Assembly (NCBI GenBank): GCA_000200715.1
Contig: DP000238.1
Span: 1,574,849-1,598,848 of the forward strand
Direction of reading: 5' to 3'
DNA: 24,000 bases
Source of the DNA: Cenarchaeum symbiosum A
Lineage (GTDB): Archaea; Thermoproteota; Nitrososphaeria; Nitrososphaerales; Nitrosopumilaceae
A model generated the notes under the pieces. It saw only the letters and a program-made list of their open reading frames with translations. It was not told the DNA's origin and did no database searches. Both the position numbers and the translations under genes were made by a program. Positions 3,170 to 14,354 of the stretch are shown here, one piece after another; position 1 is the stretch's first letter, and the number at the start of each line of letters is the position of its first letter.

Positions 3170-3973
3170 ATGAATACACGTCTTTCGGCGCTTGCCTTGT
3201 CCGCGGTCTTGGTTGCGGGCTTGGGCATTTCGCCGATTTTCGCACAGCTGACAACGCCCATCTCGGTCTCGACGAGCATGCCTGTCTATGGCGCCGGCGA
3301 AACCGTTGTGGTGACTGGCGAGGTCAGGGAACTCCTGTCCGGATACCCGGTCTCGATTCAGGTCTTTGCACCAAACGGCAACCTGGTTAATGTAAACCAG
3401 ATCAACGTGGAGCCCGACAGGACTTTCACTGCTGAGATCTCAACAGGCGCAGGCTGGAAAGAAGGTTCGTACATGATCAAGGTAGTCTATGGAGGCGATG
3501 CCAGGTCTGCCGAGACCACGTTCGAGCTGGGAGCATCGGGCATCATTACGCCCAGCACACCTTCCGGACTGACCCAGAGGGTTGAAGGCACCGACTTCTC
3601 GCTAAGCTACACGATCACCGGCGGGAGCATTGTAAGCATAACACCCGATGTTGATGCCGCGTCCCTGATCATCGAGATCGACTCGACTGACGACGGCGTG
3701 CTGACGATCACCCTCCCGAGGGCGCTCATAGAGGCCGACAACGGCTTCCTGGTGCTGGTGGACGGGACGCAGGTGGAGTTTGATGAGAGCGAAACCGCAA
3801 CCGACAGCACCCTGACGATCGCGTTCCCGAATGGAGCAGAGACGATCGAGATCATCGGCACCATGGTGGTGCCAGAGTTCGGCACCATAGCGGTTCTGGT
3901 CTTGGCAGCGGCAATAGTCTCGATTATAGCCGTCTCGGCTAGGTCCAGACTCGGCATCATGCGTACATACTAG
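3170..3973 (+). CDS. Secreted protein with PEFG-type C-terminal sorting signal (paralog 1)
   Basis: Signal peptide MNTRLSALALSAVLVAGLGISPIFA/Q. C-terminus GTMVVPEFGTIAVLVLAAAIVSIIAVSARSRLGIMRTY, i.e. PEFG motif, hydrophobic helix and basic tail. It has its own TATA box and a downstream T-tract. Confidence 0.9.
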   Translation: MNTRLSALALSAVLVAGLGISPIFAQLTTPISVSTSMPVYGAGETVVVTGEVRELLSGYPVSIQVFAPNGNLVNVNQINVEPDRTFTAEISTGAGWKEGSYMIKVVYGGDARSAETTFELGASGIITPSTPSGLTQRVEGTDFSLSYTITGGSIVSITPDVDAASLIIEIDSTDDGVLTITLPRALIEADNGFLVLVDGTQVEFDESETATDSTLTIAFPNGAETIEIIGTMVVPEFGTIAVLVLAAAIVSIIAVSARSRLGIMRTY

Positions 3974-4037: not shown

Positions 4038-4901
4038 ATGAACGTACGCAACATGTACGCACTGGCAGCCCTTGTGGCGCTCGCCGGGACAGCATCAGTC
4101 CCGGTGCTGGCGCAGTTCGAGGAGCTGCCCCCCGCATGTCCTGACTGTGAAGGAGACGTCAGGGATCTGGCGCTGATGGACCGGCTAAGAGACGTTCCCA
4201 TCACCGTCTGGAGCGACAAGACAATGTACGGCCATGATTCTACAATCACTGTCAACGGACAGGTGGCCCATGTAAAGCCCGGCACCCCCGTCACACTGAG
4301 GGTGATAAGCCCCCTGAACAACTTGGTCAGTGTGGAGCAGATTGACGTCAACAGCGACGGCAGCTTCGCAACCGACCTTAGGGCGTCAGGTGATCTGTGG
4401 AAGTACGACGGCACCTATACCATAAGGGTCCAGTACGGCCAGGGCATAGACGACAAGCTTTTGATCAGCCTTGACGGCGGCATAACCGGCGATGGAGATT
4501 CACGCTCGGCATGCAGCAGTTCCGAGGTGGCGGCTGGAGACCAGTGCATACCGTTCCGCATAATGGGCGGCGATGTAACCGGCGCAGACATCAACGTAGA
4601 AGACAGGTCCGTTACCATCAGGATATCATCCAGCACGGGAGGCGAACTGATACTAAGCCCCTCCAGTGATACGATAGACGGGATCTACCTTGTGCTGGTT
4701 GACGGGCAGGAAGAAGATGCAGACATAGACGGCAACCGGGTCACAGTGACATTTCCAGCAGGCGCGACAGAAGTCGAGCTGGTCGGCACCTTTGTGATAC
4801 CCGAGTTTGGCACCGTGGCGGTTCTGGTCCTGGCTGTATCAATAGTCTCGATTATAGCCGTATCCGCGAGGTCGCGGTTTGGCATCATGCGGACATACTA
4901 G
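4038..4901 (+). CDS. Secreted protein with PEFG-type C-terminal sorting signal (paralog 2)
   Basis: Signal peptide MNVRNMYALAALVALAGTASVPVLA/Q. C-terminus GTFVIPEFGTVAVLVLAVSIVSIIAVSARSRFGIMRTY. Same two-domain layout as paralog 1. Confidence 0.9.
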   Translation: MNVRNMYALAALVALAGTASVPVLAQFEELPPACPDCEGDVRDLALMDRLRDVPITVWSDKTMYGHDSTITVNGQVAHVKPGTPVTLRVISPLNNLVSVEQIDVNSDGSFATDLRASGDLWKYDGTYTIRVQYGQGIDDKLLISLDGGITGDGDSRSACSSSEVAAGDQCIPFRIMGGDVTGADINVEDRSVTIRISSSTGGELILSPSSDTIDGIYLVLVDGQEEDADIDGNRVTVTFPAGATEVELVGTFVIPEFGTVAVLVLAVSIVSIIAVSARSRFGIMRTY

Positions 4902-4907
4902 TCCACA

Positions 4908-4920
4908 TTTCAGATTTTTT
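4908..4920 (+). terminator. Oligo-T terminator candidate
   Basis: TTTCAGATTTTTT lies just after the stop at 4899-4901, with a T6 run at 4915-4920. Confidence 0.4.
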
Positions 4921-4977
4921 CACATGCACACAAAACCGTGCCGCCGTGGCCCCGTCTGTAGCAAGGGAAATATACGA

Positions 4978-5823
4978 ATGATCAACAGGTGCAGTGTGCG
5001 GGTGATCCCATTCGTAATAGCCGCGGCGGTGCTGCTTGCGGTATTGTATGCACAGCCGCCCCAGTACGCGGAGGCGCAGGTGCAGGACTTTCGGCCGCCC
5101 CCTCCCCCCACCATGACCGTGAGGACGTCGGAGGGCATGTACGAGCAGGGCGACGTGGTGGTGATATCTGGCAGGGTGAGCACAGTCTTTGAGGGCGAGG
5201 TCACCATACAGGTATTTCTCGACACCACGCTAGTCGAGATAGACCAGCTGCCAGTGGCGCAGGACGGCAGTTATTCTGTCACGATAAACGCCGAGGGGAA
5301 CCGGTGGTCCAAGCCGGGCACCTACACGGTAAGGGCCACATACGGGGAGGACACCATCGAGACCACCTTCGAGTACGCGACAGCGCTAGTCATGACAGAG
5401 ACGACCAAGAGCTTTGAGGTCGGCGCCGGCGATTCCGGCACGTTTGATGTCCCGTACACGATAGTCGGGGGGACTGTCCAAAACATGTACATCGACCCGC
5501 CAAACCTCTCGCTTATTGTCATCATAGAGGCCGAGGGCAACGGCGCGCTGACAGTGGACCTTCCCAGGGATTGGATCGACTCCAAGGACCCCGGCGGGGC
5601 GGACGAGGAGTACATAGTGCTTGTGGACGGATCCGAGATCATCCACACGCAGGTGGTCCAGGACTCGGAGATCCGCAAGGTCAGGGCGGACTTTACAGAG
5701 GAGAGCACCGAGATCATCATAATAGGAACGGAGATAATCCCCGAGTTTGGCGCGGCCCTGCCGGCGCTCGCGGCAGCAGTTGCGGCAGCGGCTGCAATCT
5801 CAAGGCGCAAGCTAACAGTCTAG
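4978..5823 (+). CDS. Secreted protein with PEFG-type C-terminal sorting signal (paralog 3, divergent tail)
   Basis: The track start at 4879 overlaps the previous gene. The ATG at 4978 gives signal peptide MINRCSVRVIPFVIAAAVLLAVLYAQPPQYAEA/Q. The GTG at 4996 is an alternative start, since it lies ~25 nt from an AAATATAC box at 4968-4975. C-terminus IIPEFGAALPALAAAVAAAAAISRRKLTV. Confidence 0.85.
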   Translation: MINRCSVRVIPFVIAAAVLLAVLYAQPPQYAEAQVQDFRPPPPPTMTVRTSEGMYEQGDVVVISGRVSTVFEGEVTIQVFLDTTLVEIDQLPVAQDGSYSVTINAEGNRWSKPGTYTVRATYGEDTIETTFEYATALVMTETTKSFEVGAGDSGTFDVPYTIVGGTVQNMYIDPPNLSLIVIIEAEGNGALTVDLPRDWIDSKDPGGADEEYIVLVDGSEIIHTQVVQDSEIRKVRADFTEESTEIIIIGTEIIPEFGAALPALAAAVAAAAAISRRKLTV

Positions 5824-6977
5824 AATCCGTACTTTGCCCGGTACGGGGAGACCCGCCTGAGCTCGGCCACCGCCCGGGTCAGCGCGTCGACTGCCCCGTC
5901 GATCTCCTCGTCGGTATTGAATATGCCCACGCTGAGCCTCAGCGAGCCGTTGATCCGCTCCCGTGCAAAGCCCATCGCACGCAATACATGGGATTCCTTT
6001 TGTGTGCGGACCGAGCAGGCAGAGCCGGTCGATGCGGCTAACCCATACTCGTCGAGCTTGATGAGGAGATCCTCCCCGCTCACACCGTAAAAAGTAAAGT
6101 GAGCGTTGCCGGGCAGCCGCGATTCTTTGCTGCCGTTGTACTCTACATGGGTTATCTCGCCGAGTATTCTCTCGGCCAGGCGGTCCCTCATGCGGCGCAC
6201 GCGCGCCGCATCCTCCGTGAGCCTCTCGCGCGCCATCTCGCACGCCCTGCCAAAGCCCGCAATGGCCGCCACGTTCTCTGTGCCCGAGCGCATCCCCCGC
6301 TCCTGGCCCCCGCCGAGTATCAGCGGGTCGAGCTCCACCCCTTTGCGGACGTACAGGGCCCCCGCGCCCTTGGGCCCGTTGATCTTGTGCGATGAAAACG
6401 ACAGCATGTCCACGCCGAGCTCCGAGACGTCAAGTGGAACCTTGCCCGCGGCCTGTACAGCGTCCGTGTGAAATACGGCCCCCCGTTCGCGGCATATCCC
6501 GGCAATCTCAGAGATGGGCTGGATTGTGCCCACTTCATTGTTGGCAGTCATTACGGATGCATGGGATGTTCCGGGGCCCACGGCTTTTGCCATCTCGGCC
6601 GCGCGTACGATGCCGTCGTCGCCGGGGCCCACCGTGCTTGTCTCAAAGCCGCGGTCGCGGAGCCTGGCGCACGGCTCGAGGACCGCGTCGTGCTCTATCG
6701 AGGTGGTGACAAACCCGTTCCGGCCAGGCTCCCCCCGCGCGCCAAGAACGGCCATGTTGTTTGATTCTGTGCCCCCCGAGGTCAGGATGATCTCTTTTGG
6801 CGAGGCGCCGATTAGCGCGGCGGCCTGCTCCCTCGCATCATCGACCGCCCTCTCGGCGGTCCTGCCCTGGCGGTGTATCGACGACGGGTTGCCATAATCC
6901 CCCTCAAGATACGGCAGCATCGCCTCGAGCACCTCGGGCCTCATGCGCGTCGAGGCCGCATTATCCAGGTAGATCAA
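5820..6977 (-). CDS. Cysteine desulfurase, NifS/IscS-like (PLP-dependent, class V aminotransferase fold)
   Basis: N-terminus (TTG)IYLDNAAST, PLP-lysine motif SFSSHKINGPKGAG, catalytic Cys loop ASTGSACS. The 478-aa track ORF (to 7256) is an extension running through larE. The TTG at 6977 overlaps the larE stop (TTGA) and yields 385 aa, the normal size for this family. Confidence 0.88.
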   Translation of the reverse strand: MIYLDNAASTRMRPEVLEAMLPYLEGDYGNPSSIHRQGRTAERAVDDAREQAAALIGASPKEIILTSGGTESNNMAVLGARGEPGRNGFVTTSIEHDAVLEPCARLRDRGFETSTVGPGDDGIVRAAEMAKAVGPGTSHASVMTANNEVGTIQPISEIAGICRERGAVFHTDAVQAAGKVPLDVSELGVDMLSFSSHKINGPKGAGALYVRKGVELDPLILGGGQERGMRSGTENVAAIAGFGRACEMARERLTEDAARVRRMRDRLAERILGEITHVEYNGSKESRLPGNAHFTFYGVSGEDLLIKLDEYGLAASTGSACSVRTQKESHVLRAMGFARERINGSLRLSVGIFNTDEEIDGAVDALTRAVAELRRVSPYRAKYGF

Positions 6978-7768
6978 TCCGCCGCCACGTTGATCCCGCC
7001 GGGGCGGTATCCGAGCGGATCTACCGTCGCCGACTTGAAGCCTATCATGCGAAGCTTGGCATCTAGCTCGGCCAGCATACCGGAGAGCCTCGCCACATCG
7101 CCCGGCTCCACCTCTATGCTGGCCGCCCCGTCCATGTCGCGCACCCTGACCTGGGCCACGCCGGCCTCGCTCTTTACAAGGGATTCGCCCATCTCTATCC
7201 GTGCCAGCTTCTCGGCAGTCACCCTCTGGCCCCACGGCACGCGCGACGCAAGGCACGAATTGGACGGCTTGTCGTGGACGGAGATGCCCGCCAGCCGGGC
7301 CTCCCTTCTCACGTCTTCCTTGCGGAAGCCCGCATCGGCCAGCGGGCTGAGTATGCCACCGTCGCGCATCGCCGCTATGCCGGGCCTGTATTCCGACAGG
7401 TCGTCAAGGTTTGTCCCGTCAACTATCACCTTTACCCCGTGCTCTGCCGCGAGTCCTGCCATCCTGCCTGCCAGCTCCGTCTTGCAGTAAAAGCACCTGC
7501 GGCTGTCGTTGCGCACAAAGTCCGCGTTCTCCAGCTCGTCGTATGTAATCAGCATGTGCTGCATGCCTATCTCGCTGCAGACCCTCTTCGCGTCGGCCAG
7601 CTCGTCCTGTGCTAATGTCTTGTAGTCTGCTGTAACAGCAATCGCGCCGTCGCCGAGAGCCCTGTGTGCCGCGTACGCCACCAGCGCCGAATCCACGCCG
7701 CCGGAGAGCGCCACCATGACGCGGCCGCGGCCGGCAAACCATTCCAAGAGACCGTCCAGGCCGGTCAT
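6974..7768 (-). CDS. larE: LarE-like PP-loop ATP pyrophosphatase (sulfur insertase of nickel-pincer cofactor synthesis)
   Basis: PP-loop VALSGGVDSALV, RRCFYCK (C92-x-x-C95), DGTNLDD, and SNSCLASRVPWG (C172, corresponding to the LarE active-site Cys region). Its start overlaps the larC stop (ATGA) and its stop overlaps the desulfurase start. Confidence 0.8.
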   Translation of the reverse strand: MTGLDGLLEWFAGRGRVMVALSGGVDSALVAYAAHRALGDGAIAVTADYKTLAQDELADAKRVCSEIGMQHMLITYDELENADFVRNDSRRCFYCKTELAGRMAGLAAEHGVKVIVDGTNLDDLSEYRPGIAAMRDGGILSPLADAGFRKEDVRREARLAGISVHDKPSNSCLASRVPWGQRVTAEKLARIEMGESLVKSEAGVAQVRVRDMDGAASIEVEPGDVARLSGMLAELDAKLRMIGFKSATVDPLGYRPGGINVAAD

Positions 7769-8982
7769 TGTTTTTCCGCCCCGTCTATGCCGGCCCTTAT
7801 CATCTCATCTGCCTCCCGGAATGGCACGCCAAGCGACCGGGCCACCCTTCCCACTTCGTCGGATTCCACCTTGTAGGTGCCAGTGGCATCGTTTGTCTTG
7901 AACCTTACGGAGAACTTTCTGCCCCCGATATCCAGCTCGGCGCTGCGGTCCGAGCGCGGGGCGGTGAGCCTCCGCGACGAGCCCATCCTCACCCCGAGGG
8001 TGCCCGATTCTGCGACCAGCAGGCCCGCCAGGCGCTCTGCCAGCCGGTGCTCGCATATCACAGATACAAGGTGCGCCGGCCTCCCTTTCTTGGTCACCGC
8101 GGGCGAGACCGTAACGTCTAGCGCGCCCTTCTCCATGACAGAGTCTATCACATGGGCCATCAGCTCGCCCGAGGCGTCGTCTATGTTGGTCTCCAGGACT
8201 GCCACGCTGTCATGAAGCAGCCCTTCTGCAGCAGGACCGCGCACCACCTTTAGCACATTGGAGAACCCGTCAGGATCTGCGCTGCCGGCGCCGTATCCCA
8301 CGCCCTCCACCTCCATGGCCGGATAGAACCCGCTGCACGAGCCCGCAAGGCACCGCAGCATGCATGCTCCCGTCGGGGTCGCCAGCTCCACGCCCGCGGG
8401 CCCCCCGCAGATTGTTATCCCGGTCCCCCGGAGGATCTCCAGTATTGCGCCAGCAGGGTTCGAGGTGGTCCCGTGCGAGAACGTTACAGTGCCGCCCCCC
8501 ACCGCAACAGGCGTGCAGACAACCTCCTCGTCAAACGCGCTCAAGTCCTCGAGTGCTATTGCTGTGCCCAGTATGTCGACGACAGTGTCAAGGCTGGCCG
8601 CCTCGTGCAAGTGCACAGAGTCCTCCGGCTCGCCGTGTATGCGCGATTCTGCCGATATCAGCGCGTCAACAGACGACTCTGCGAACCCTGCCGCGCGCCC
8701 CGGCAGGCCTATCTTTTTGCACGCATTTGTTATGCATTCGCGCACCTCCGACGCGCGGCGCGCGTGCACTCCCCCTTCCAGGCGCAGGACCATGCCGGTC
8801 GCCTCGGTGCCGTGCCGCCGCGTCTTCTCAAAGCTGATCTCTACTATGCGCTCGCCCCCCAGGGGCCCCGCCGACCTGACGCCGTCTGATACGGCCGTCG
8901 CGCTTGCGCCCATGTCGACAAGTGACGAGAGCATCATGTCGCCGGATATGCCCGCGACCTGGCAGTCTATAACCAGAACCAT
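7765..8982 (-). CDS. larC: LarC-like nickel insertase (DUF111 family)
   Basis: The ATG at 8982 gives MVLVIDCQVAGISGDMMLSSLVDMG, the family's N-terminal motif. Further motifs: VHLHEAASLDTVVDILG, ELATPTGACML, LETNIDDASGE, VTKKGRPAHLVSV, ESGTLGVR. The track ORF start at 9069 adds 29 Pro/Arg-rich residues and is rejected. Confidence 0.85.
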   Translation of the reverse strand: MVLVIDCQVAGISGDMMLSSLVDMGASATAVSDGVRSAGPLGGERIVEISFEKTRRHGTEATGMVLRLEGGVHARRASEVRECITNACKKIGLPGRAAGFAESSVDALISAESRIHGEPEDSVHLHEAASLDTVVDILGTAIALEDLSAFDEEVVCTPVAVGGGTVTFSHGTTSNPAGAILEILRGTGITICGGPAGVELATPTGACMLRCLAGSCSGFYPAMEVEGVGYGAGSADPDGFSNVLKVVRGPAAEGLLHDSVAVLETNIDDASGELMAHVIDSVMEKGALDVTVSPAVTKKGRPAHLVSVICEHRLAERLAGLLVAESGTLGVRMGSSRRLTAPRSDRSAELDIGGRKFSVRFKTNDATGTYKVESDEVGRVARSLGVPFREADEMIRAGIDGAEKQ

Positions 8983-9004
8983 GCGCCATCGGCGGCCCAA
9001 AATG

Positions 9005-9014
9005 CATATAAATT
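9005..9014 (-). promoter_or_regulatory. TATA box for larC-larE-desulfurase operon
   Basis: The minus strand reads AATTTATATG. The box centre is 27.5 nt upstream of the larC ATG at 8982, implying a leaderless transcript. Confidence 0.5.
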
Positions 9015-9076
9015 GTCGCGGGCGGCCGCGCGGAGACAGCGGTCCCGGCGGGGGCGGATTCCGGTGCATGCACTAC

Positions 9077-9090: not shown

Positions 9091-9112
9091 CTGATTGCCG
9101 CGGCCGCGCGGC

Positions 9113-10021
9113 ATGATAACCATAATAGGGGCCGGAAAGGTCGGCGGCGACGCAGCCATGTTCTGCGCGCTAAGGAGGCTCGACAGCGAGATTCTACTGC
9201 TCGACATAGTAGAGGGGCTGCCGCAGGGCGAGGCCATGGACATAAACCACATGCTCGCAGAGCAGGGGATAGACACGGAGGTCCGGGGCTCCAACGACTA
9301 TTCCGACATGGAGGGATCCGACATAGTGGTGGTGGTCGCCGGCGCCGGCAGAAAGCCGGGCATGACCAGGATGGACCTGCTCAAGATAAACGCAGGGATA
9401 GTAAAGGGGGTCGTCGAAAAGGTAAAAGAGCACGCCAAGGATTCCATGATAATCCCAGTTACAAACCCCCTTGATCCCATAACCTACATAGCATACAAGA
9501 CGTCCGGGTTTGAAAAAAACCGCGTCTTTGGCATGGGAGGAATGCTGGACCTGTCGAGGTTCAGGCAGTTCATACACGAGGCGACGGGCTACTCCCGGGA
9601 TTCCATCAGGGCTCTAGTCATGGGCGAGCACGGCGAGAACATGCTGCCCCTGCCGAGGTTCTCGACGGTCTCGGGGATACCCCTGCTGTCCCTTATATCC
9701 GCGGAAAAGGCAGCCGAGCTGGTCCGGGATACCAAGAAGGTTGCCGCCAAGGTGATAGAGCTCAAAGGGGCGACGGTCCACGCCCCGGGCAACTCCATAT
9801 CGGCCATGGTGGAATCCATAGTGCGGGACAAAAAGCAGGTGATCCCTGTATCTGCATACCTTGAGGGGGAGTACGGGCACTCTGGCGTTACCATAGGCGT
9901 GCCTGCAGTCATAGGCAGAAAAGGTGTCGAAAAGATAGTGGAGCTTGACCTTGACGGGGCCGAGAAGGAGGCGTTTGACAAGGGCGTTGCAAGCGTCAGG
10001 GACGCGGTATCCGGCGTCTGA
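9113..10021 (+). CDS. mdh: Malate dehydrogenase, LDH-like family
   Basis: [12 protein letters not shown] Rossmann motif. [14 protein letters not shown] has Arg at the substrate-discriminating position, which is Gln in LDHs. [20 protein letters not shown] and the MGEHGENM catalytic His are present. The TTG at 9095 in the track is a 6-codon over-extension. Confidence 0.9.
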
Positions 10022-10033
10022 CTAGATTTTTAT
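10021..10033 (+). promoter_or_regulatory. BRE/TATA region of larB (ACTAGATTTTTAT)
   Basis: The ATTTTTAT centre is 27.5 nt upstream of the TTG at 10057. ACTAGATTT starts exactly 36 nt before the start codon. The box directly follows the mdh stop (10019-10021), and its T5 run could also terminate mdh transcription. Confidence 0.5.
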
Positions 10034-10056
10034 CGGAAAATACAGGTGGCCAAATA

Positions 10057-10860
10057 TTGGAGCTCGACGAGATCCTCGAATCGCTTGCGGCAGGAAGGAT
10101 GGATTCAGCAGAGGCCAGGAGGCTGCTCTCGCTGTATTCCATAGAGAAGATGGGCGAGTTTGCAAAGTTCGACGCGGGCAGAAAGAACCGCAGGGGGATA
10201 CCCGAGGTGGTATACGCAGGCGGCAAGCAGCCAGTAGAGATAAGGGAGATAATCACGGGAGCCCTGAACAGCTCGGATTCTGTCCTGGTATCCAGGATAC
10301 GCGCAGACGACCTGCCTGATATAATGAAATTTGCAGGGGAGGCAGGCCTGCGCACTGACGAGGGAAGAAACTCGTCGTCTGTGCTGTTCTTTAGGAATCC
10401 GCCGCCAGAATACCCCGGAAAGGTGGGGATCATCTGCGCAGGAACCTCGGATATCGGCATAGCAGAAGAGGCCCGCCTCATGTGCAGGGCGATGAACTGC
10501 GGGAGCATCTGCAGCTATGATGTCGGGGTGGCCGGCATGCACAGGCTGTTCCCCGTCCTAAAGGAGATGGTGGCAGGCGATGTGGACGTGATAGTAGCGG
10601 TGGCCGGGATGGAGGGGGCGCTCGCCACGATAGTCTCGTCGATGGTGGACCTGCCGGTGATCGGGGTGCCAAGCTCCGCCGGCTACGGGTACGGAGGTGA
10701 TGGAATAGGGGCCCTTGCGGCCATGCTGCAAAGCTGCACCCTCGGGGTATCAGTAGTCAACATAGATAACGGGATAGGGGCGGGCGCTGTGGCTGCAAGC
10801 ATATGCCGCCGGGTCCGGCTCAGGGGCGGCGCGGAGCCGAGCGCAGATCCGCGCCCGTAA
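10057..10860 (+). CDS. larB: LarB-like (PurE/AIR-carboxylase-related) pyridinium-3,5-biscarboxylic acid mononucleotide synthase
   Basis: Motifs RRGIPEVVYAGGK, IICAGTSDIGIAEEA, DVGVAGMHRL, VAGMEGALATIVSSMVDLPVIGVPSSAGYGYGG. The TTG start is supported by the conserved N-terminal helix ILESLAAGRMDSAEARRLL and by promoter spacing. Confidence 0.85.
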   Translation: MELDEILESLAAGRMDSAEARRLLSLYSIEKMGEFAKFDAGRKNRRGIPEVVYAGGKQPVEIREIITGALNSSDSVLVSRIRADDLPDIMKFAGEAGLRTDEGRNSSSVLFFRNPPPEYPGKVGIICAGTSDIGIAEEARLMCRAMNCGSICSYDVGVAGMHRLFPVLKEMVAGDVDVIVAVAGMEGALATIVSSMVDLPVIGVPSSAGYGYGGDGIGALAAMLQSCTLGVSVVNIDNGIGAGAVAASICRRVRLRGGAEPSADPRP

Positions 10861-11279: not shown

Positions 11280-12857
11280 TTGGCCGGCAAACGCGTGGTC
11301 CTCACAGCTGATCGCAGTCTGATGACGAACTACAGGGGGAACTTTCTCTATGGGTTTATCGCATGCGGCCCCTACGAGGTGCTGCCCGAGTGGGTCTTTG
11401 ACAAGGTCTTCTGCCCCGCAGTCGAGACGGACCCCCAGACAGGCGAGGCCAAGGTCGCCCAGGTGGGCCTGAGAAGGGTCCAGGGGGCCCTCCGCCAGGG
11501 CTACAAAAAGGAGGAGGTCTTTGTCGCCAACCCGGATTACATAGACAAGCCGATAGGCCCCGACACAAAGGTTGTCGGGATAAACGTGATGGACCCGCTG
11601 GGAATGGCGCCGGTCACCACGACCATGTCGCCTGAAAAGCTCTCCTATGTGGCCATGAAGTTCAAGAGGCTCTGCGCCAGGCTGATACAGCTGAAGAAAA
11701 AGTACGACTTCAAGGTGGTCATAGGCGGCAACGGCGCCTGGGAGCTGGCAAAGCCCGACAGGATGAAGATCCACGGGATAGACACTGTCGTCATAGGCGA
11801 GGCCGACGAGCTGGCAATGGACCTGTTTACCGACCTTGAAAAGGGCGACGCGCCGGAGCTGATGCACTGCTTTGTAAAGAACATACAGAACATACCGGTA
11901 ATAGACGAGCCGACGGTAAACTCGCTGATAGAGGCGATGAGGGGCTGCGGCAGGGGCTGTGACTTTTGCGACGTGAACAAGCGCTCAAAGAAAGACCTCC
12001 CCCCGGACAGGCTGCAAAAAGAGGCCAAGGTCAACCTCGACTATGGATTTGATTCAATCTGGCTCCACTCTGACGAGATGCTTTTGTACGGGTGCGACAA
12101 CCGCGACTTTATACCAAACAGGGACGCCATCACCGATCTCTGGAAGGGCCTCAAGGGGCTTGGCGCCAACTTTATCGGGACCACCCACATGACATTCTCT
12201 GCGGTGGCGGCGGACCCGGAACTGATGCACAACATAGCCACCATCAACCGGCAGCACGAGAACAACAGGTGGCTATCAACCAACCTTGGAATAGAGACCG
12301 TCGCGCCGGACTTGGTAAAAAAGCACCTCGGCGTCAAGACAAGGCCGTTTGCGCCGGAGGAATGGGGCAGCGTGGTCAGGAAGGGCGCCGAGATAATGAA
12401 CGAGAACCACTGGTTCCCTGCTGCGACAATAATCATCGGGTGGCCCGACGAATCCCCGGCGGACGTGCAGTACACGCTCGACATGGTGACAGATTTCAGG
12501 GCCATGGATTTCAGGGGCCTGGTGGCGCCGCTGCTCTACCAGGACTTTAGCGAAAAGAACTCTATGCACTTTGGCAACCTCAACGAGGCGCAGTTTACCT
12601 TGTTCTGGAAGTGCTGGGAGAACAACCTCAAGGTGATAAACGACATCATACCGATAATACTCCGGAACAAGACCTACGGCCCGCCGATGAAGCTCTTCAT
12701 GTACGGGATAATCAAGGCTGGCACCTGGGCGATAATGAGATACCTCAGGGGCCTCTGCAAGGACCTATTCAACGGCAAGATGCCCGACGAGATAGTCGAG
12801 AAATACGCAAGGAGCAGGTCGGTATCCGCCCCCAAGATAGAGACCAAAAAGCTCTGA
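11280..12857 (+). CDS. Radical SAM enzyme with N-terminal Rossmann-like (B12-binding-like) domain
   Basis: CGRGCDFC is the CxxxCxxC radical-SAM cluster motif, in EAMRGCGRGCDFCDV. The N-terminal ~200 aa (VVLTADRSLM..VVGINVMDPLG..KVVIGGNGAWELA..IDTVVIGEAD) resemble the accessory domain of class-B-type radical SAM enzymes. TTG start; the nearby ATG at 11263 is out of frame. Confidence 0.8.
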   Translation: MAGKRVVLTADRSLMTNYRGNFLYGFIACGPYEVLPEWVFDKVFCPAVETDPQTGEAKVAQVGLRRVQGALRQGYKKEEVFVANPDYIDKPIGPDTKVVGINVMDPLGMAPVTTTMSPEKLSYVAMKFKRLCARLIQLKKKYDFKVVIGGNGAWELAKPDRMKIHGIDTVVIGEADELAMDLFTDLEKGDAPELMHCFVKNIQNIPVIDEPTVNSLIEAMRGCGRGCDFCDVNKRSKKDLPPDRLQKEAKVNLDYGFDSIWLHSDEMLLYGCDNRDFIPNRDAITDLWKGLKGLGANFIGTTHMTFSAVAADPELMHNIATINRQHENNRWLSTNLGIETVAPDLVKKHLGVKTRPFAPEEWGSVVRKGAEIMNENHWFPAATIIIGWPDESPADVQYTLDMVTDFRAMDFRGLVAPLLYQDFSEKNSMHFGNLNEAQFTLFWKCWENNLKVINDIIPIILRNKTYGPPMKLFMYGIIKAGTWAIMRYLRGLCKDLFNGKMPDEIVEKYARSRSVSAPKIETKKL

Positions 12858-13361: not shown

Positions 13362-14354
13362 TCAGGCGCGGCGGACGGCCCTTGACCGGAGGTAGCCACC
13401 GGTCTTTATGCCCACCAGTGCGGGCGCCGCCACGTACATCCCAAGGTTGAGGGCTATAACGGCCATGCCGAGTCCCAGCACCTGCTGCTCCGAGCCGTCC
13501 TCGGCCAGTGTCATTATTGATAGCGTGGCCAGCATCGGCGTAACTGCCGCCCTGACCATCTCGCGGAATATTGGGCTCTCCCTCTCAAGGTCCGCCACTG
13601 CGGGCGAGAATGCATAGTATACGGTGCTAAACGCGCCCATGAAGGACGAGCCTGATTCTGTCGACATCAGCGTGTTGTCCCTTATCTCCCGGAGGTACTG
13701 CACCTGCGGTGCAAGCTCCGAGCCGTACGCTGCAGTTGCGATCAGGCACCCGCCTCCGCGTCCTGAGTCACGCTCGGGGACGCAGCTGCCGTCCTGCAGA
13801 ATGGTGCCGGCCCCGCATTGTACCTCAGGTTCAGGCTCCGGTTCTGGCTCGGGCTCTGGTTCAGGTTCTGGCTCGGGTTCGGGCTCCGGCTCGGGCTCTG
13901 GTTCAGGTTCTGGCTCGGGTTCCGGCTCTGGCTCGGGCTCTGGTTCTGGTTCCGGCTGTGCAGCCGCCCCGCCCAGATATTCAAAGAAGCCCACATGGCT
14001 CTGGGCTCCATATTGGACCTTGATCTCATAGTCACCACCCTGCTTCCACTGCGGGCCCCCGGCCACCAGGGTCTTCTCATACGAGCCGTCCGACCCCGGT
14101 ACGATCTGGTCGATGCCCACTATTGTGCCGAGGGGATCGACGATTATTATGGTGACGGCCTGGCTATAGTCGCCCAGGGTCTTTATCTGTCCTGATATTG
14201 TAACCGTATCCTTGTCAGAGTAGATGGGCTTGTCCGTTATAATCGAGATGGGCAGCCCGGAAGCGCCGGTCTGTGCGGCCACCGGCGCGGCCATGCCGTA
14301 TGATAGTATCGATGCGGCCAGAATAGCCAATGCCAGCCTACCGGACGTTTTCAT
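13362..14354 (-). CDS. Secreted/anchored protein: shared N-module + (PE)22 linker + Cys-motif C-terminal domain with hydrophobic tail
   Basis: Signal peptide [28 protein letters not shown]. The N-module is homologous to the PEFG-paralog N-modules. Next come 22 Pro-Glu repeats, then [12 protein letters not shown], then [28 protein letters not shown]...YYAFSP. The C-terminus has two hydrophobic stretches and an RSRAVRRA tail. Confidence 0.88.
13824..13955 (-). repeat. Hexanucleotide-periodic coding repeat, 22 x (CCN GAR) = (Pro-Glu)22
   Basis: Counted unit by unit from the sequence. Synonymous codons vary between units. There is a 35-nt exact internal duplicate at 42-nt offset (13846-13880 = 13888-13922). 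Confidence 0.95.

Follow-up and report, generated by a model that had tools for sequence, protein, structure and literature searches.

The subject of this analysis is a gene cluster of Cenarchaeum symbiosum A, an ammonia-oxidizing archaeon (AOA, a term used in the following for the whole group) that is associated with sponges, in which genes for making the cofactor known as nickel-pincer nucleotide (NPN) are linked to the gene of a cysteine desulfurase. The cluster lies in a stretch of 24,000 nucleotides (contig DP000238.1 of assembly GCA_000200715.1, positions 1,574,849 to 1,598,848), which is called the window and in which all coordinates are counted unless another locus is named. On the minus strand of the window, larC, larE and a nifS-like gene follow each other head to tail with the junctions ATGA and TTGA, and both of these overlaps, which had been pointed out in an earlier note made from the letters of this DNA, are confirmed by the sequence. 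Together the three genes probably form an operon by which an aerobic archaeon carries out the final steps of NPN synthesis.

7765-8982, minus strand: larC, fused LarC1 and LarC2 nickel-inserting cyclometallase (PF01969, E=3.6e-102; NCBIfam models LarC1 and LarC2 both over cut-off)
7765-7768, minus strand: larC/larE overlap ATGA, composed of the larC stop TGA and the larE start ATG (read from the sequence)
6974-7768, minus strand: larE, PP-loop ATP-dependent sulfur insertase of the predicted [4Fe-4S] CxxC+C class, 264 residues (TIGR00268, PDB matches)
7688-7705, minus strand: PP-loop SGGVDS (S22-S27), the motif for ATP binding and adenylylation (invariant in 120 homologues)
7484-7495, minus strand: C92-F-Y-C95, predicted cluster ligands 1 and 2 (invariant; aligned to rCynCk of the Methanococcus maripaludis LarE)
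7253-7255, minus strand: C172, predicted cluster ligand 3 (invariant; HMMER alignment)
6974-6977, minus strand: larE/nifS overlap TTGA, with the nifS start TTG at 6977-6975 and the larE stop TGA at 6976-6974 (read from the sequence)
5820-6977, minus strand: group-I (NifS/IscS-type) cysteine desulfurase dependent on pyridoxal phosphate (PLP), 385 residues (PF00266, E=6.4e-79)
6384-6386 and 6015-6017, minus strand: PLP-binding lysine K198 and catalytic cysteine C321 of the desulfurase

The conserved N-terminus of LarC (MVLVIDC..GISGDM) starts with the methionine at 8982, and the longest open reading frame (ORF) reaches to 9069. That longest form would have 434 residues, orthologues being called at 402-415, and its 29 additional N-terminal residues (8983-9069, minus strand), which are rich in proline and arginine, are probably not translated.

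LarE falls by its sequence into the cluster-type class

The window LarE is 100% identical to a C. symbiosum protein that is annotated as 'ATP-utilizing enzyme of the PP-loop superfamily', and it matches TIGR00268, the model of the sulfurtransferases acting on the mononucleotide of pyridinium-3,5-biscarboxylic acid (P2CMN), with 258.8 bits (cut-off 150) over residues 7-260 of its 264. It contains four cysteines, C64 (KRVCSEI), C92 and C95 (RRCFYCK), and C172 (SNSCLAS), all of them in the contexts in which they had originally been noticed. C92, C95 and C172 do not vary among 120 AOA homologues or in an alignment of 52 sequences that includes 16 bacterial LarEs of 33-45% identity, and in the alignment with the bacterial LarEs the same holds for S175, R208 and R210, which correspond to the phosphate-binding residues S180, R212 and R214 of the Lactiplantibacillus plantarum enzyme.

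The suggestion that the three invariant cysteines bind a cluster is supported by two comparisons. The LarE of Thermotoga maritima holds a [4Fe-4S] cluster by Cys92, Cys95 and Cys172 and gives up no sulfur from its cysteines (Chatterjee et al. 2022, PMC9283937), so that even the residue numbers are identical. Both are PP-loop enzymes in which the third cysteine is shifted by one relative to L. plantarum Cys176, and the sequence identity of the two is about 40% or lower, as estimated from the bacterial homologues. The second comparison is with the LarE of M. maripaludis (PDB 8cnz, 8cp3 and 8cp4, in the [4Fe-4S]-bound form), which was found by HMMER among the PDB sequences with E=2e-24 for 8cnz (L. 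plantarum LarE: E=5e-29), and in this alignment rCfyCk of the window protein is placed on rCynCk and nsClasR on dtCmatR. An AlphaFold (AF2) model of the window LarE, built from an alignment of database proteins only, has a predicted local distance difference test score (pLDDT) of 89.4 and is superimposed by Foldseek on 8cnz ('mmLarE-[4Fe-4S]') with a template modelling (TM) score of 0.87 and a root-mean-square deviation of 2.0 Å. The fold is thus the same and the three ligand cysteines align, whereas the sequence identity is only 27-28%. In the secondary structure of the model, C92 and C95 are at the N-terminus of a helix, and C172 is ahead of helix 173-176. Judged by these alignments, C92, C95 and C172 are the predicted [4Fe-4S] ligand set of the published cluster-type LarE.

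The LarE of L. plantarum (PDB 5udq and others) shares family, fold and the phosphate-binding residues with the window LarE, but it has no CxxC motif and consumes its Cys176 as sulfur source, whereas the window LarE has CxxC plus C. In the HMMER alignment, C172 is one residue past the position of the sacrificial Cys176, and the same shift by one has been described for the T. maritima enzyme, together with the occurrence of the CxxC-C motif in most LarE homologues (PMC9283937). For the protein studied here, 'sacrificial sulfur transferase', the name used by NCBIfam, therefore misleads. The earlier note had presented a catalytic, non-sacrificial LarE as a prediction. The class assignment was correct, but this is the published majority class, with multiple turnovers shown in 2022 with IscS and cysteine (PMC9283937), and the window LarE, which by its sequence belongs to this characterized class, is for that reason not new in itself.

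The fourth cysteine, C64 (7577-7579), had been listed as a further cysteine. It is indeed present and kept in 119 of 120 Nitrosopumilales LarEs, but this conservation is confined to the Nitrosopumilales, as the alignments show no such cysteine in the LarEs of Nitrososphaerales, L. plantarum and M. maripaludis. As a general feature, a fourth ligand or a persulfide relay at this position was rejected on these grounds. In the model, C64 is found close to the C-terminus of helix 54-67, an end that probably faces away from the active site.

A group-I desulfurase with a hidden start

The gene that follows larE encodes a desulfurase that scores 470 bits with NifS (TIGR03402), 380 with IscS, 367 with DndA (TIGR03235), 161 with SufS and 90 with CsdA. 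With 470.1 versus 530.75 bits it stays under the NifS equivalog cut-off, and it is also under those of IscS and DndA, so the protein, although NifS-like in length and sequence, is on sequence criteria not to be filed as a nitrogen-fixation NifS. Its closest relatives in the PDB are Archaeoglobus fulgidus IscS2, human NFS1 and Escherichia coli IscS, and the DndA structure 3vax is matched with 5e-67. The lysine and cysteine motifs, SSHK with K198 and GSAC with C321, had been reported as intact, and they are indeed invariant in all 121 sequences compared, that is, the window protein and 120 homologues.

The GenBank product has 374 residues and begins at Met12. Among the same 121 sequences, 119 start at the same position as the 385-residue form and keep the residues ahead of Met12, (M/L)IYLDNAAST.., and it can therefore be concluded that TTG is the true nifS start. 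With the start at Met12, the stretch 6944-6977 is left out, by which the conserved IYLDNAAST is lost and the overlap with larE is hidden.

The desulfurase of the window is the group-I iscS protein (arCOG00066) that Abby et al. 2020 (PMC7554672, supplement) scored as gained by the last common ancestor of the AOA and read as a help against damage of Fe-S clusters by reactive oxygen species. The same supplement assigns to the AOA ancestor a SUF system with sufS (group II, arCOG00065, multicopy), nifU and sufBCD/A, and the presence of SufS in C. symbiosum is taken from these AOA-wide tables. It had been asked whether the enzyme might be the sole housekeeping desulfurase of the organism; since the published reconstructions list a separate SufS, the group-I enzyme is accessory and not the only AOA desulfurase.

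Conservation of the larE-nifS pair and of its junction

Loci were sampled by a genome scan anchored on LarE, by look-ups of named genomes, by a metagenome scan with an alignment of AOA LarEs, and from Nitrososphaerales contigs. In 61 of 87 LarE-anchored AOA loci, which cover Nitrosopumilales and Nitrososphaerales, nifS is directly 3' of larE, and conversely larE directly precedes nifS in all three NifS-anchored AOA loci. The genome scan, which was anchored on a single LarE, yielded 77 bacterial CxxC-LarE loci and three AOA loci, the latter being few because such a scan relies on exact peptide words; two of these three have nifS right after larE, and the third, of Nitrosopelagicus (L002), does not. 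In the look-ups, larC-larE-nifS was seen in Nitrosopumilus koreensis AR1 and on four further contigs of AOA, and 78 evaluable loci came from the metagenomes, with nifS directly downstream of larE in 53 and not in 25.

The absences are not scattered. In a neighbour-joining tree of LarE, 24 of the 25 nifS-less metagenome loci form a single clade together with L002, sister to the nifS-bearing loci L003 and L125, so that 25 of all 26 nifS-less AOA loci fall into one pelagic, Nitrosopelagicus-like clade, a pattern consistent with one ancestral deletion of nifS. The 26th locus, L098, is a separate loss. In L002 (6390-7229 of that locus), a convergent PEFG-CTERM gene is found immediately after larE. 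The clade (L002 and the 24 metagenome loci, for example L146 and L151) retains larB, the malate dehydrogenase gene mdh, larC and larE.

As the entire neighbourhood is syntenic in the Nitrosopumilales (rpoH/rpoB, the PEFG-CTERM genes, mdh, larB and a radical SAM gene), adjacency within this order is weak evidence when taken alone, and it could be thought that the arrangement is frozen synteny from the AOA ancestor, with no functional coupling. This is highly improbable, as the trio survives in wholly different surroundings, its junctions overlap or abut in varied sequence forms, and the pair makes biochemical sense (PMC9283937). In L083 and L085 the trio is intact despite a rearranged mdh-larB arm or rearranged flanks. 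The most divergent metagenome locus (L165) led to LarEs that are labelled 'Nitrososphaera sp.' by NCBI, and three Nitrososphaerales contigs (L167-L169, GC content 0.43-0.52) also carry larC-larE-nifS, flanked by genes of ribosomal proteins and SecY, or of acetyl-CoA carboxylase, which are unrelated to the flanks in Nitrosopumilales.

In 55 of 58 AOA junctions between larE and nifS there is a 4-nt overlap, TTGA or ATGA; nifS starts with TTG in 54 of the 58, and larE stops with TGA in 56. The Nitrososphaerales junctions are ATGACTGA, with an 8-nt overlap, or TGATG, with a 1-nt overlap, and such overlapping in differing sequence forms implies that a tight coupling has been maintained. A weak start codon set within the stop of the preceding gene is the pattern that would be expected for termination-reinitiation, and the translation of nifS is thus probably tied to ribosomes that finish larE. 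The earlier note had concluded from the overlap a dedicated and stoichiometric sulfur supply. Of this, the tight and conserved gene coupling stands, but a 4-nt overlap that contains a weak TTG gives no ground for a stoichiometry: the junction argues for linked expression and not for a 1:1 ratio, and an exclusive or stoichiometric supply of LarE by NifS goes beyond what conserved gene pairing supports.

The probable sulfur donor of LarE

The most likely role of the co-encoded NifS is that of the in vivo sulfur donor that reloads the LarE cluster. By homology, LarB would make P2CMN, and the PP-loop of LarE would adenylylate a carboxylate of it. LarE would hold its [4Fe-4S] cluster by C92, C95 and C172, one iron being left free, and a non-core sulfide on this iron (the [4Fe-5S] state) would attack the activated carboxylate and displace AMP, without any protein cysteine being spent. 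NifS, as the conserved gene coupling suggests, would take sulfur from free cysteine as a persulfide on C321, with PLP on K198, and then recharge the cluster, so that LarE could complete two turnovers for each cofactor and go on doing so. After two LarE rounds, LarC would, again by homology, insert the nickel. The delivery of sulfur by a desulfurase has been shown in vitro for T. maritima LarE: given cysteine and the IscS of E. coli, this enzyme made multiple turnovers, and only LarE that carried its cluster took over the persulfide sulfur of IscS (PMC9283937). A desulfurase-fed route would also be physiologically sensible, as aerobic AOA have presumably little free sulfide.

Several points weigh against a private partnership of the two enzymes. 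It is typical of group-I desulfurases to serve promiscuously as sulfur hubs. Overlaps of 4 nt are common in compact prokaryotic operons, and the overlap alone therefore says little. The case for a LarE-NifS partnership in AOA is put together from gene identities, motifs, the modelled fold, gene order and the junction, with the biochemistry taken from the T. maritima homologue. The nifS-less clade (25 loci) and L098 still have larC-larE, and as the clade keeps larBCE, an adjacent nifS must be dispensable there, or another desulfurase substitutes for it; with this large pelagic clade, the word 'dedicated' of the earlier note is unproven. Among the 77 bacterial CxxC-LarE loci, which served as outgroup sample and are biased toward RCFYCKTE-like sequences, none has an adjacent desulfurase gene, and in one locus such a gene is 7 kb off. 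As also the desulfurase genes of T. maritima are distant from larE (PMC9283937), LarE in general needs no private partner.

One alternative, in line with these points, is that the NifS/IscS-type enzyme is a general sulfur hub that serves tRNA thiolation, thiamine, molybdopterin and Fe-S repair, with LarE as one client or none. The IscS and DndA scores near the NifS score, all under the equivalog cut-offs, fit such a role, as does the loss of the gene in a clade that retains larBCE, and Abby et al. interpreted the gene as a capacity for Fe-S synthesis or repair (PMC7554672). We nevertheless regard this as unlikely, because adjacency and tight junctions have been kept over two AOA orders despite unrelated flanks, a housekeeping enzyme has no obvious reason to rely on a weak TTG inside the larE stop, and the SUF system has its own SufS (PMC7554672).

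It is less likely still that NifS is a cluster-assembly partner, the sulfide of which builds or repairs the [4Fe-4S] cluster of LarE and does not become the sulfur of the cofactor. The desulfurase resembles DndA (367 bits and the 3vax match given above), there are precedents in DndA for the PP-loop protein DndC and in NifS for nitrogenase, and aerobic cells presumably must keep repairing exposed three-cysteine clusters. Yet T. maritima LarE that is already loaded with its cluster consumes the IscS persulfide, and the product yield rises (PMC9283937), and AOA have SUF for assembly (PMC7554672). The roles of sulfur donor and assembly partner are moreover not mutually exclusive.

As proposed, the system operates in the manner of T. 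maritima LarE with IscS and of other [4Fe-4S] PP-loop sulfur insertases such as TtuA, but with differences. The desulfurase genes of T. maritima lie far from larE and the experiment employed a heterologous enzyme, E. coli IscS, whereas nifS and larE overlap in the window and form a pair that is conserved across AOA. Cysteine desulfurases are often missing from anaerobic methanogens, the group to which M. maripaludis belongs, and these may make direct use of sulfide. In methanogens, SufBC has been described as a minimal system of two proteins (PMC12584684). The tRNA thiolases of the TtuA/NcsA type have, as proposed for LarE, a three-cysteine cluster, a free iron with a transferable sulfide, and substrate adenylylation, but their substrate is a tRNA uridine and the donor is often a thiocarboxylated carrier protein, and the similarity to TtuA PH0300 is weak (E=7e-4). 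In the case of DndA and DndC, the gene of a NifS-like group-I desulfurase is found beside that of the PP-loop enzyme that is served, with other acceptor and product than in the case of LarE. YrvO-MnmA and NifZ-ThiI of Bacillus are likewise gene pairs of a desulfurase and a PP-loop enzyme, with other acceptors and products. A desulfurase gene linked to larE was not found described in the open-access full texts searched, of which only three mention both LarE and cysteine desulfurase, in agreement with the earlier note, to which no description of the arrangement was known. What is seen in the AOA is thus known chemistry in a lineage-specific, conserved genetic packaging.

In the Nitrososphaerales loci, a peroxiredoxin-type gene is found directly 3' of nifS on the same strand (9013-9511 in L167 and L168, 9063-9596 in L169). 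The encoded protein has a thioredoxin fold and is PrxQ/Tpx-like, with 88 bits to PRK09437, which is below the cut-off, and it has no counterpart in the window. It might supply the reductant for persulfide cleavage, or simply shield the cluster.

Which enzyme uses the cofactor?

The divergent arm of the locus contains the following genes.

10057-10860, plus strand: larB, first enzyme of nickel-pincer cofactor synthesis (NF033503, 227 bits, cut-off 175)
9095-10021, plus strand: mdh, malate dehydrogenase (MDH) resembling lactate dehydrogenase (LDH), directly 5' of larB (PRK06223, 387 bits; likely start 9113)
11280-12857, plus strand: radical SAM protein of 525 residues, after larB

While larC overlaps larE, larB is 2.3 kb away from larE on the arm that diverges from larC. 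Nearly all of the AOA loci sampled have the lar genes. LarA is not encoded in the 24,000 nucleotides of the window, and the statement about its scarcity is based on published AOA-wide tables, in which just 3 of the 13 Nitrososphaerota that were surveyed have COG3875 (LarA; PMC11770544, supplement). Should larB, larC, larE and a private desulfurase make up a full self-supplied pathway, the cofactor might, with so few LarA proteins, serve an undiscovered enzyme other than LarA, but this is a remote possibility.

The gene closest at hand is mdh, which forms a same-strand pair with larB with a gap of 35 nt (9095-10860, plus strand; likewise at 12646-14382 in L083 and 3322-5055 in L167 and L168). 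The pair is conserved in the Nitrosopumilales and in two of three Nitrososphaerales loci, and it stays joined when it is detached from larC-larE-nifS. Folds of the NAD type can use nickel-pincer cofactors, as exemplified by NphT with its aldo-keto reductase fold, and oxidoreductases annotated as NAD(P)-dependent co-occur with larBCE (PMC13524815, 2026); ornithine cyclodeaminase is named as a further nickel-pincer user in a citation within the same article. The LDH/MDH-family enzyme upstream of larB would thus be the best-placed candidate for a non-LarA user in AOA, with nickel-pincer mononucleotide (NPMN) or nickel-pincer adenine dinucleotide (NPAD) instead of or besides NAD. This is a long shot, however, and can be followed only as a low-probability lead, because the MDH looks canonical: its dinucleotide motif GAGKVGG/Asp is the customary one, the catalytic GEHG is present, and its closest PDB entries are ordinary MDHs.

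In L167 and L168, an extra ORF of 187-188 residues (5146-5712, plus strand) without Pfam or NCBIfam match lies between mdh and larC.

Other genes of the neighbourhood

The radical SAM gene after larB is present also in N. koreensis AR1 (L081/L082) and in L084, in L086 there is a shorter, weakly matching one two genes away from larB, and it is not found beside larB in Nitrososphaerales. The protein has weak similarity to the B12-binding/radical SAM family TIGR04013 and to MiaB-like families. On the other side of the trio, three tandem paralogous genes on the plus strand (3170-3973, 4038-4901 and 4879-5823) encode secreted PEFG-CTERM proteins (TIGR04296, 27-47 bits, cut-off 25), and in several other Nitrosopumilales loci the same position is occupied by unannotated genes of like size and orientation. 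The last of the three ends in a palindromic CTAG, and the nifS stop on the opposite strand comes from the same CTAG. Farther away, at 13362-14354 on the minus strand, a secreted protein is encoded that combines a CFI-box-CTERM domain (78.7 bits, cut-off 40) with a long (EP)n repeat, in which there are some 26 units.

Significance

Globally abundant nitrifiers invest in a nickel-pincer cofactor. The physiological donor of cluster-type LarE has so far been inferred only from the experiment with the heterologous E. coli IscS, and the conserved, overlapping larE-nifS pair of AOA is natural genetic evidence for a partnership of LarE with a desulfurase. LarE and NifS of AOA are at the same time a matched enzyme pair for biochemistry. 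The group-I iscS gene of AOA is physically within the lar cluster, and its published interpretation can be sharpened accordingly: the enzyme, which has been filed under oxidative stress and Fe-S repair, now looks like a part of nickel-pincer synthesis.

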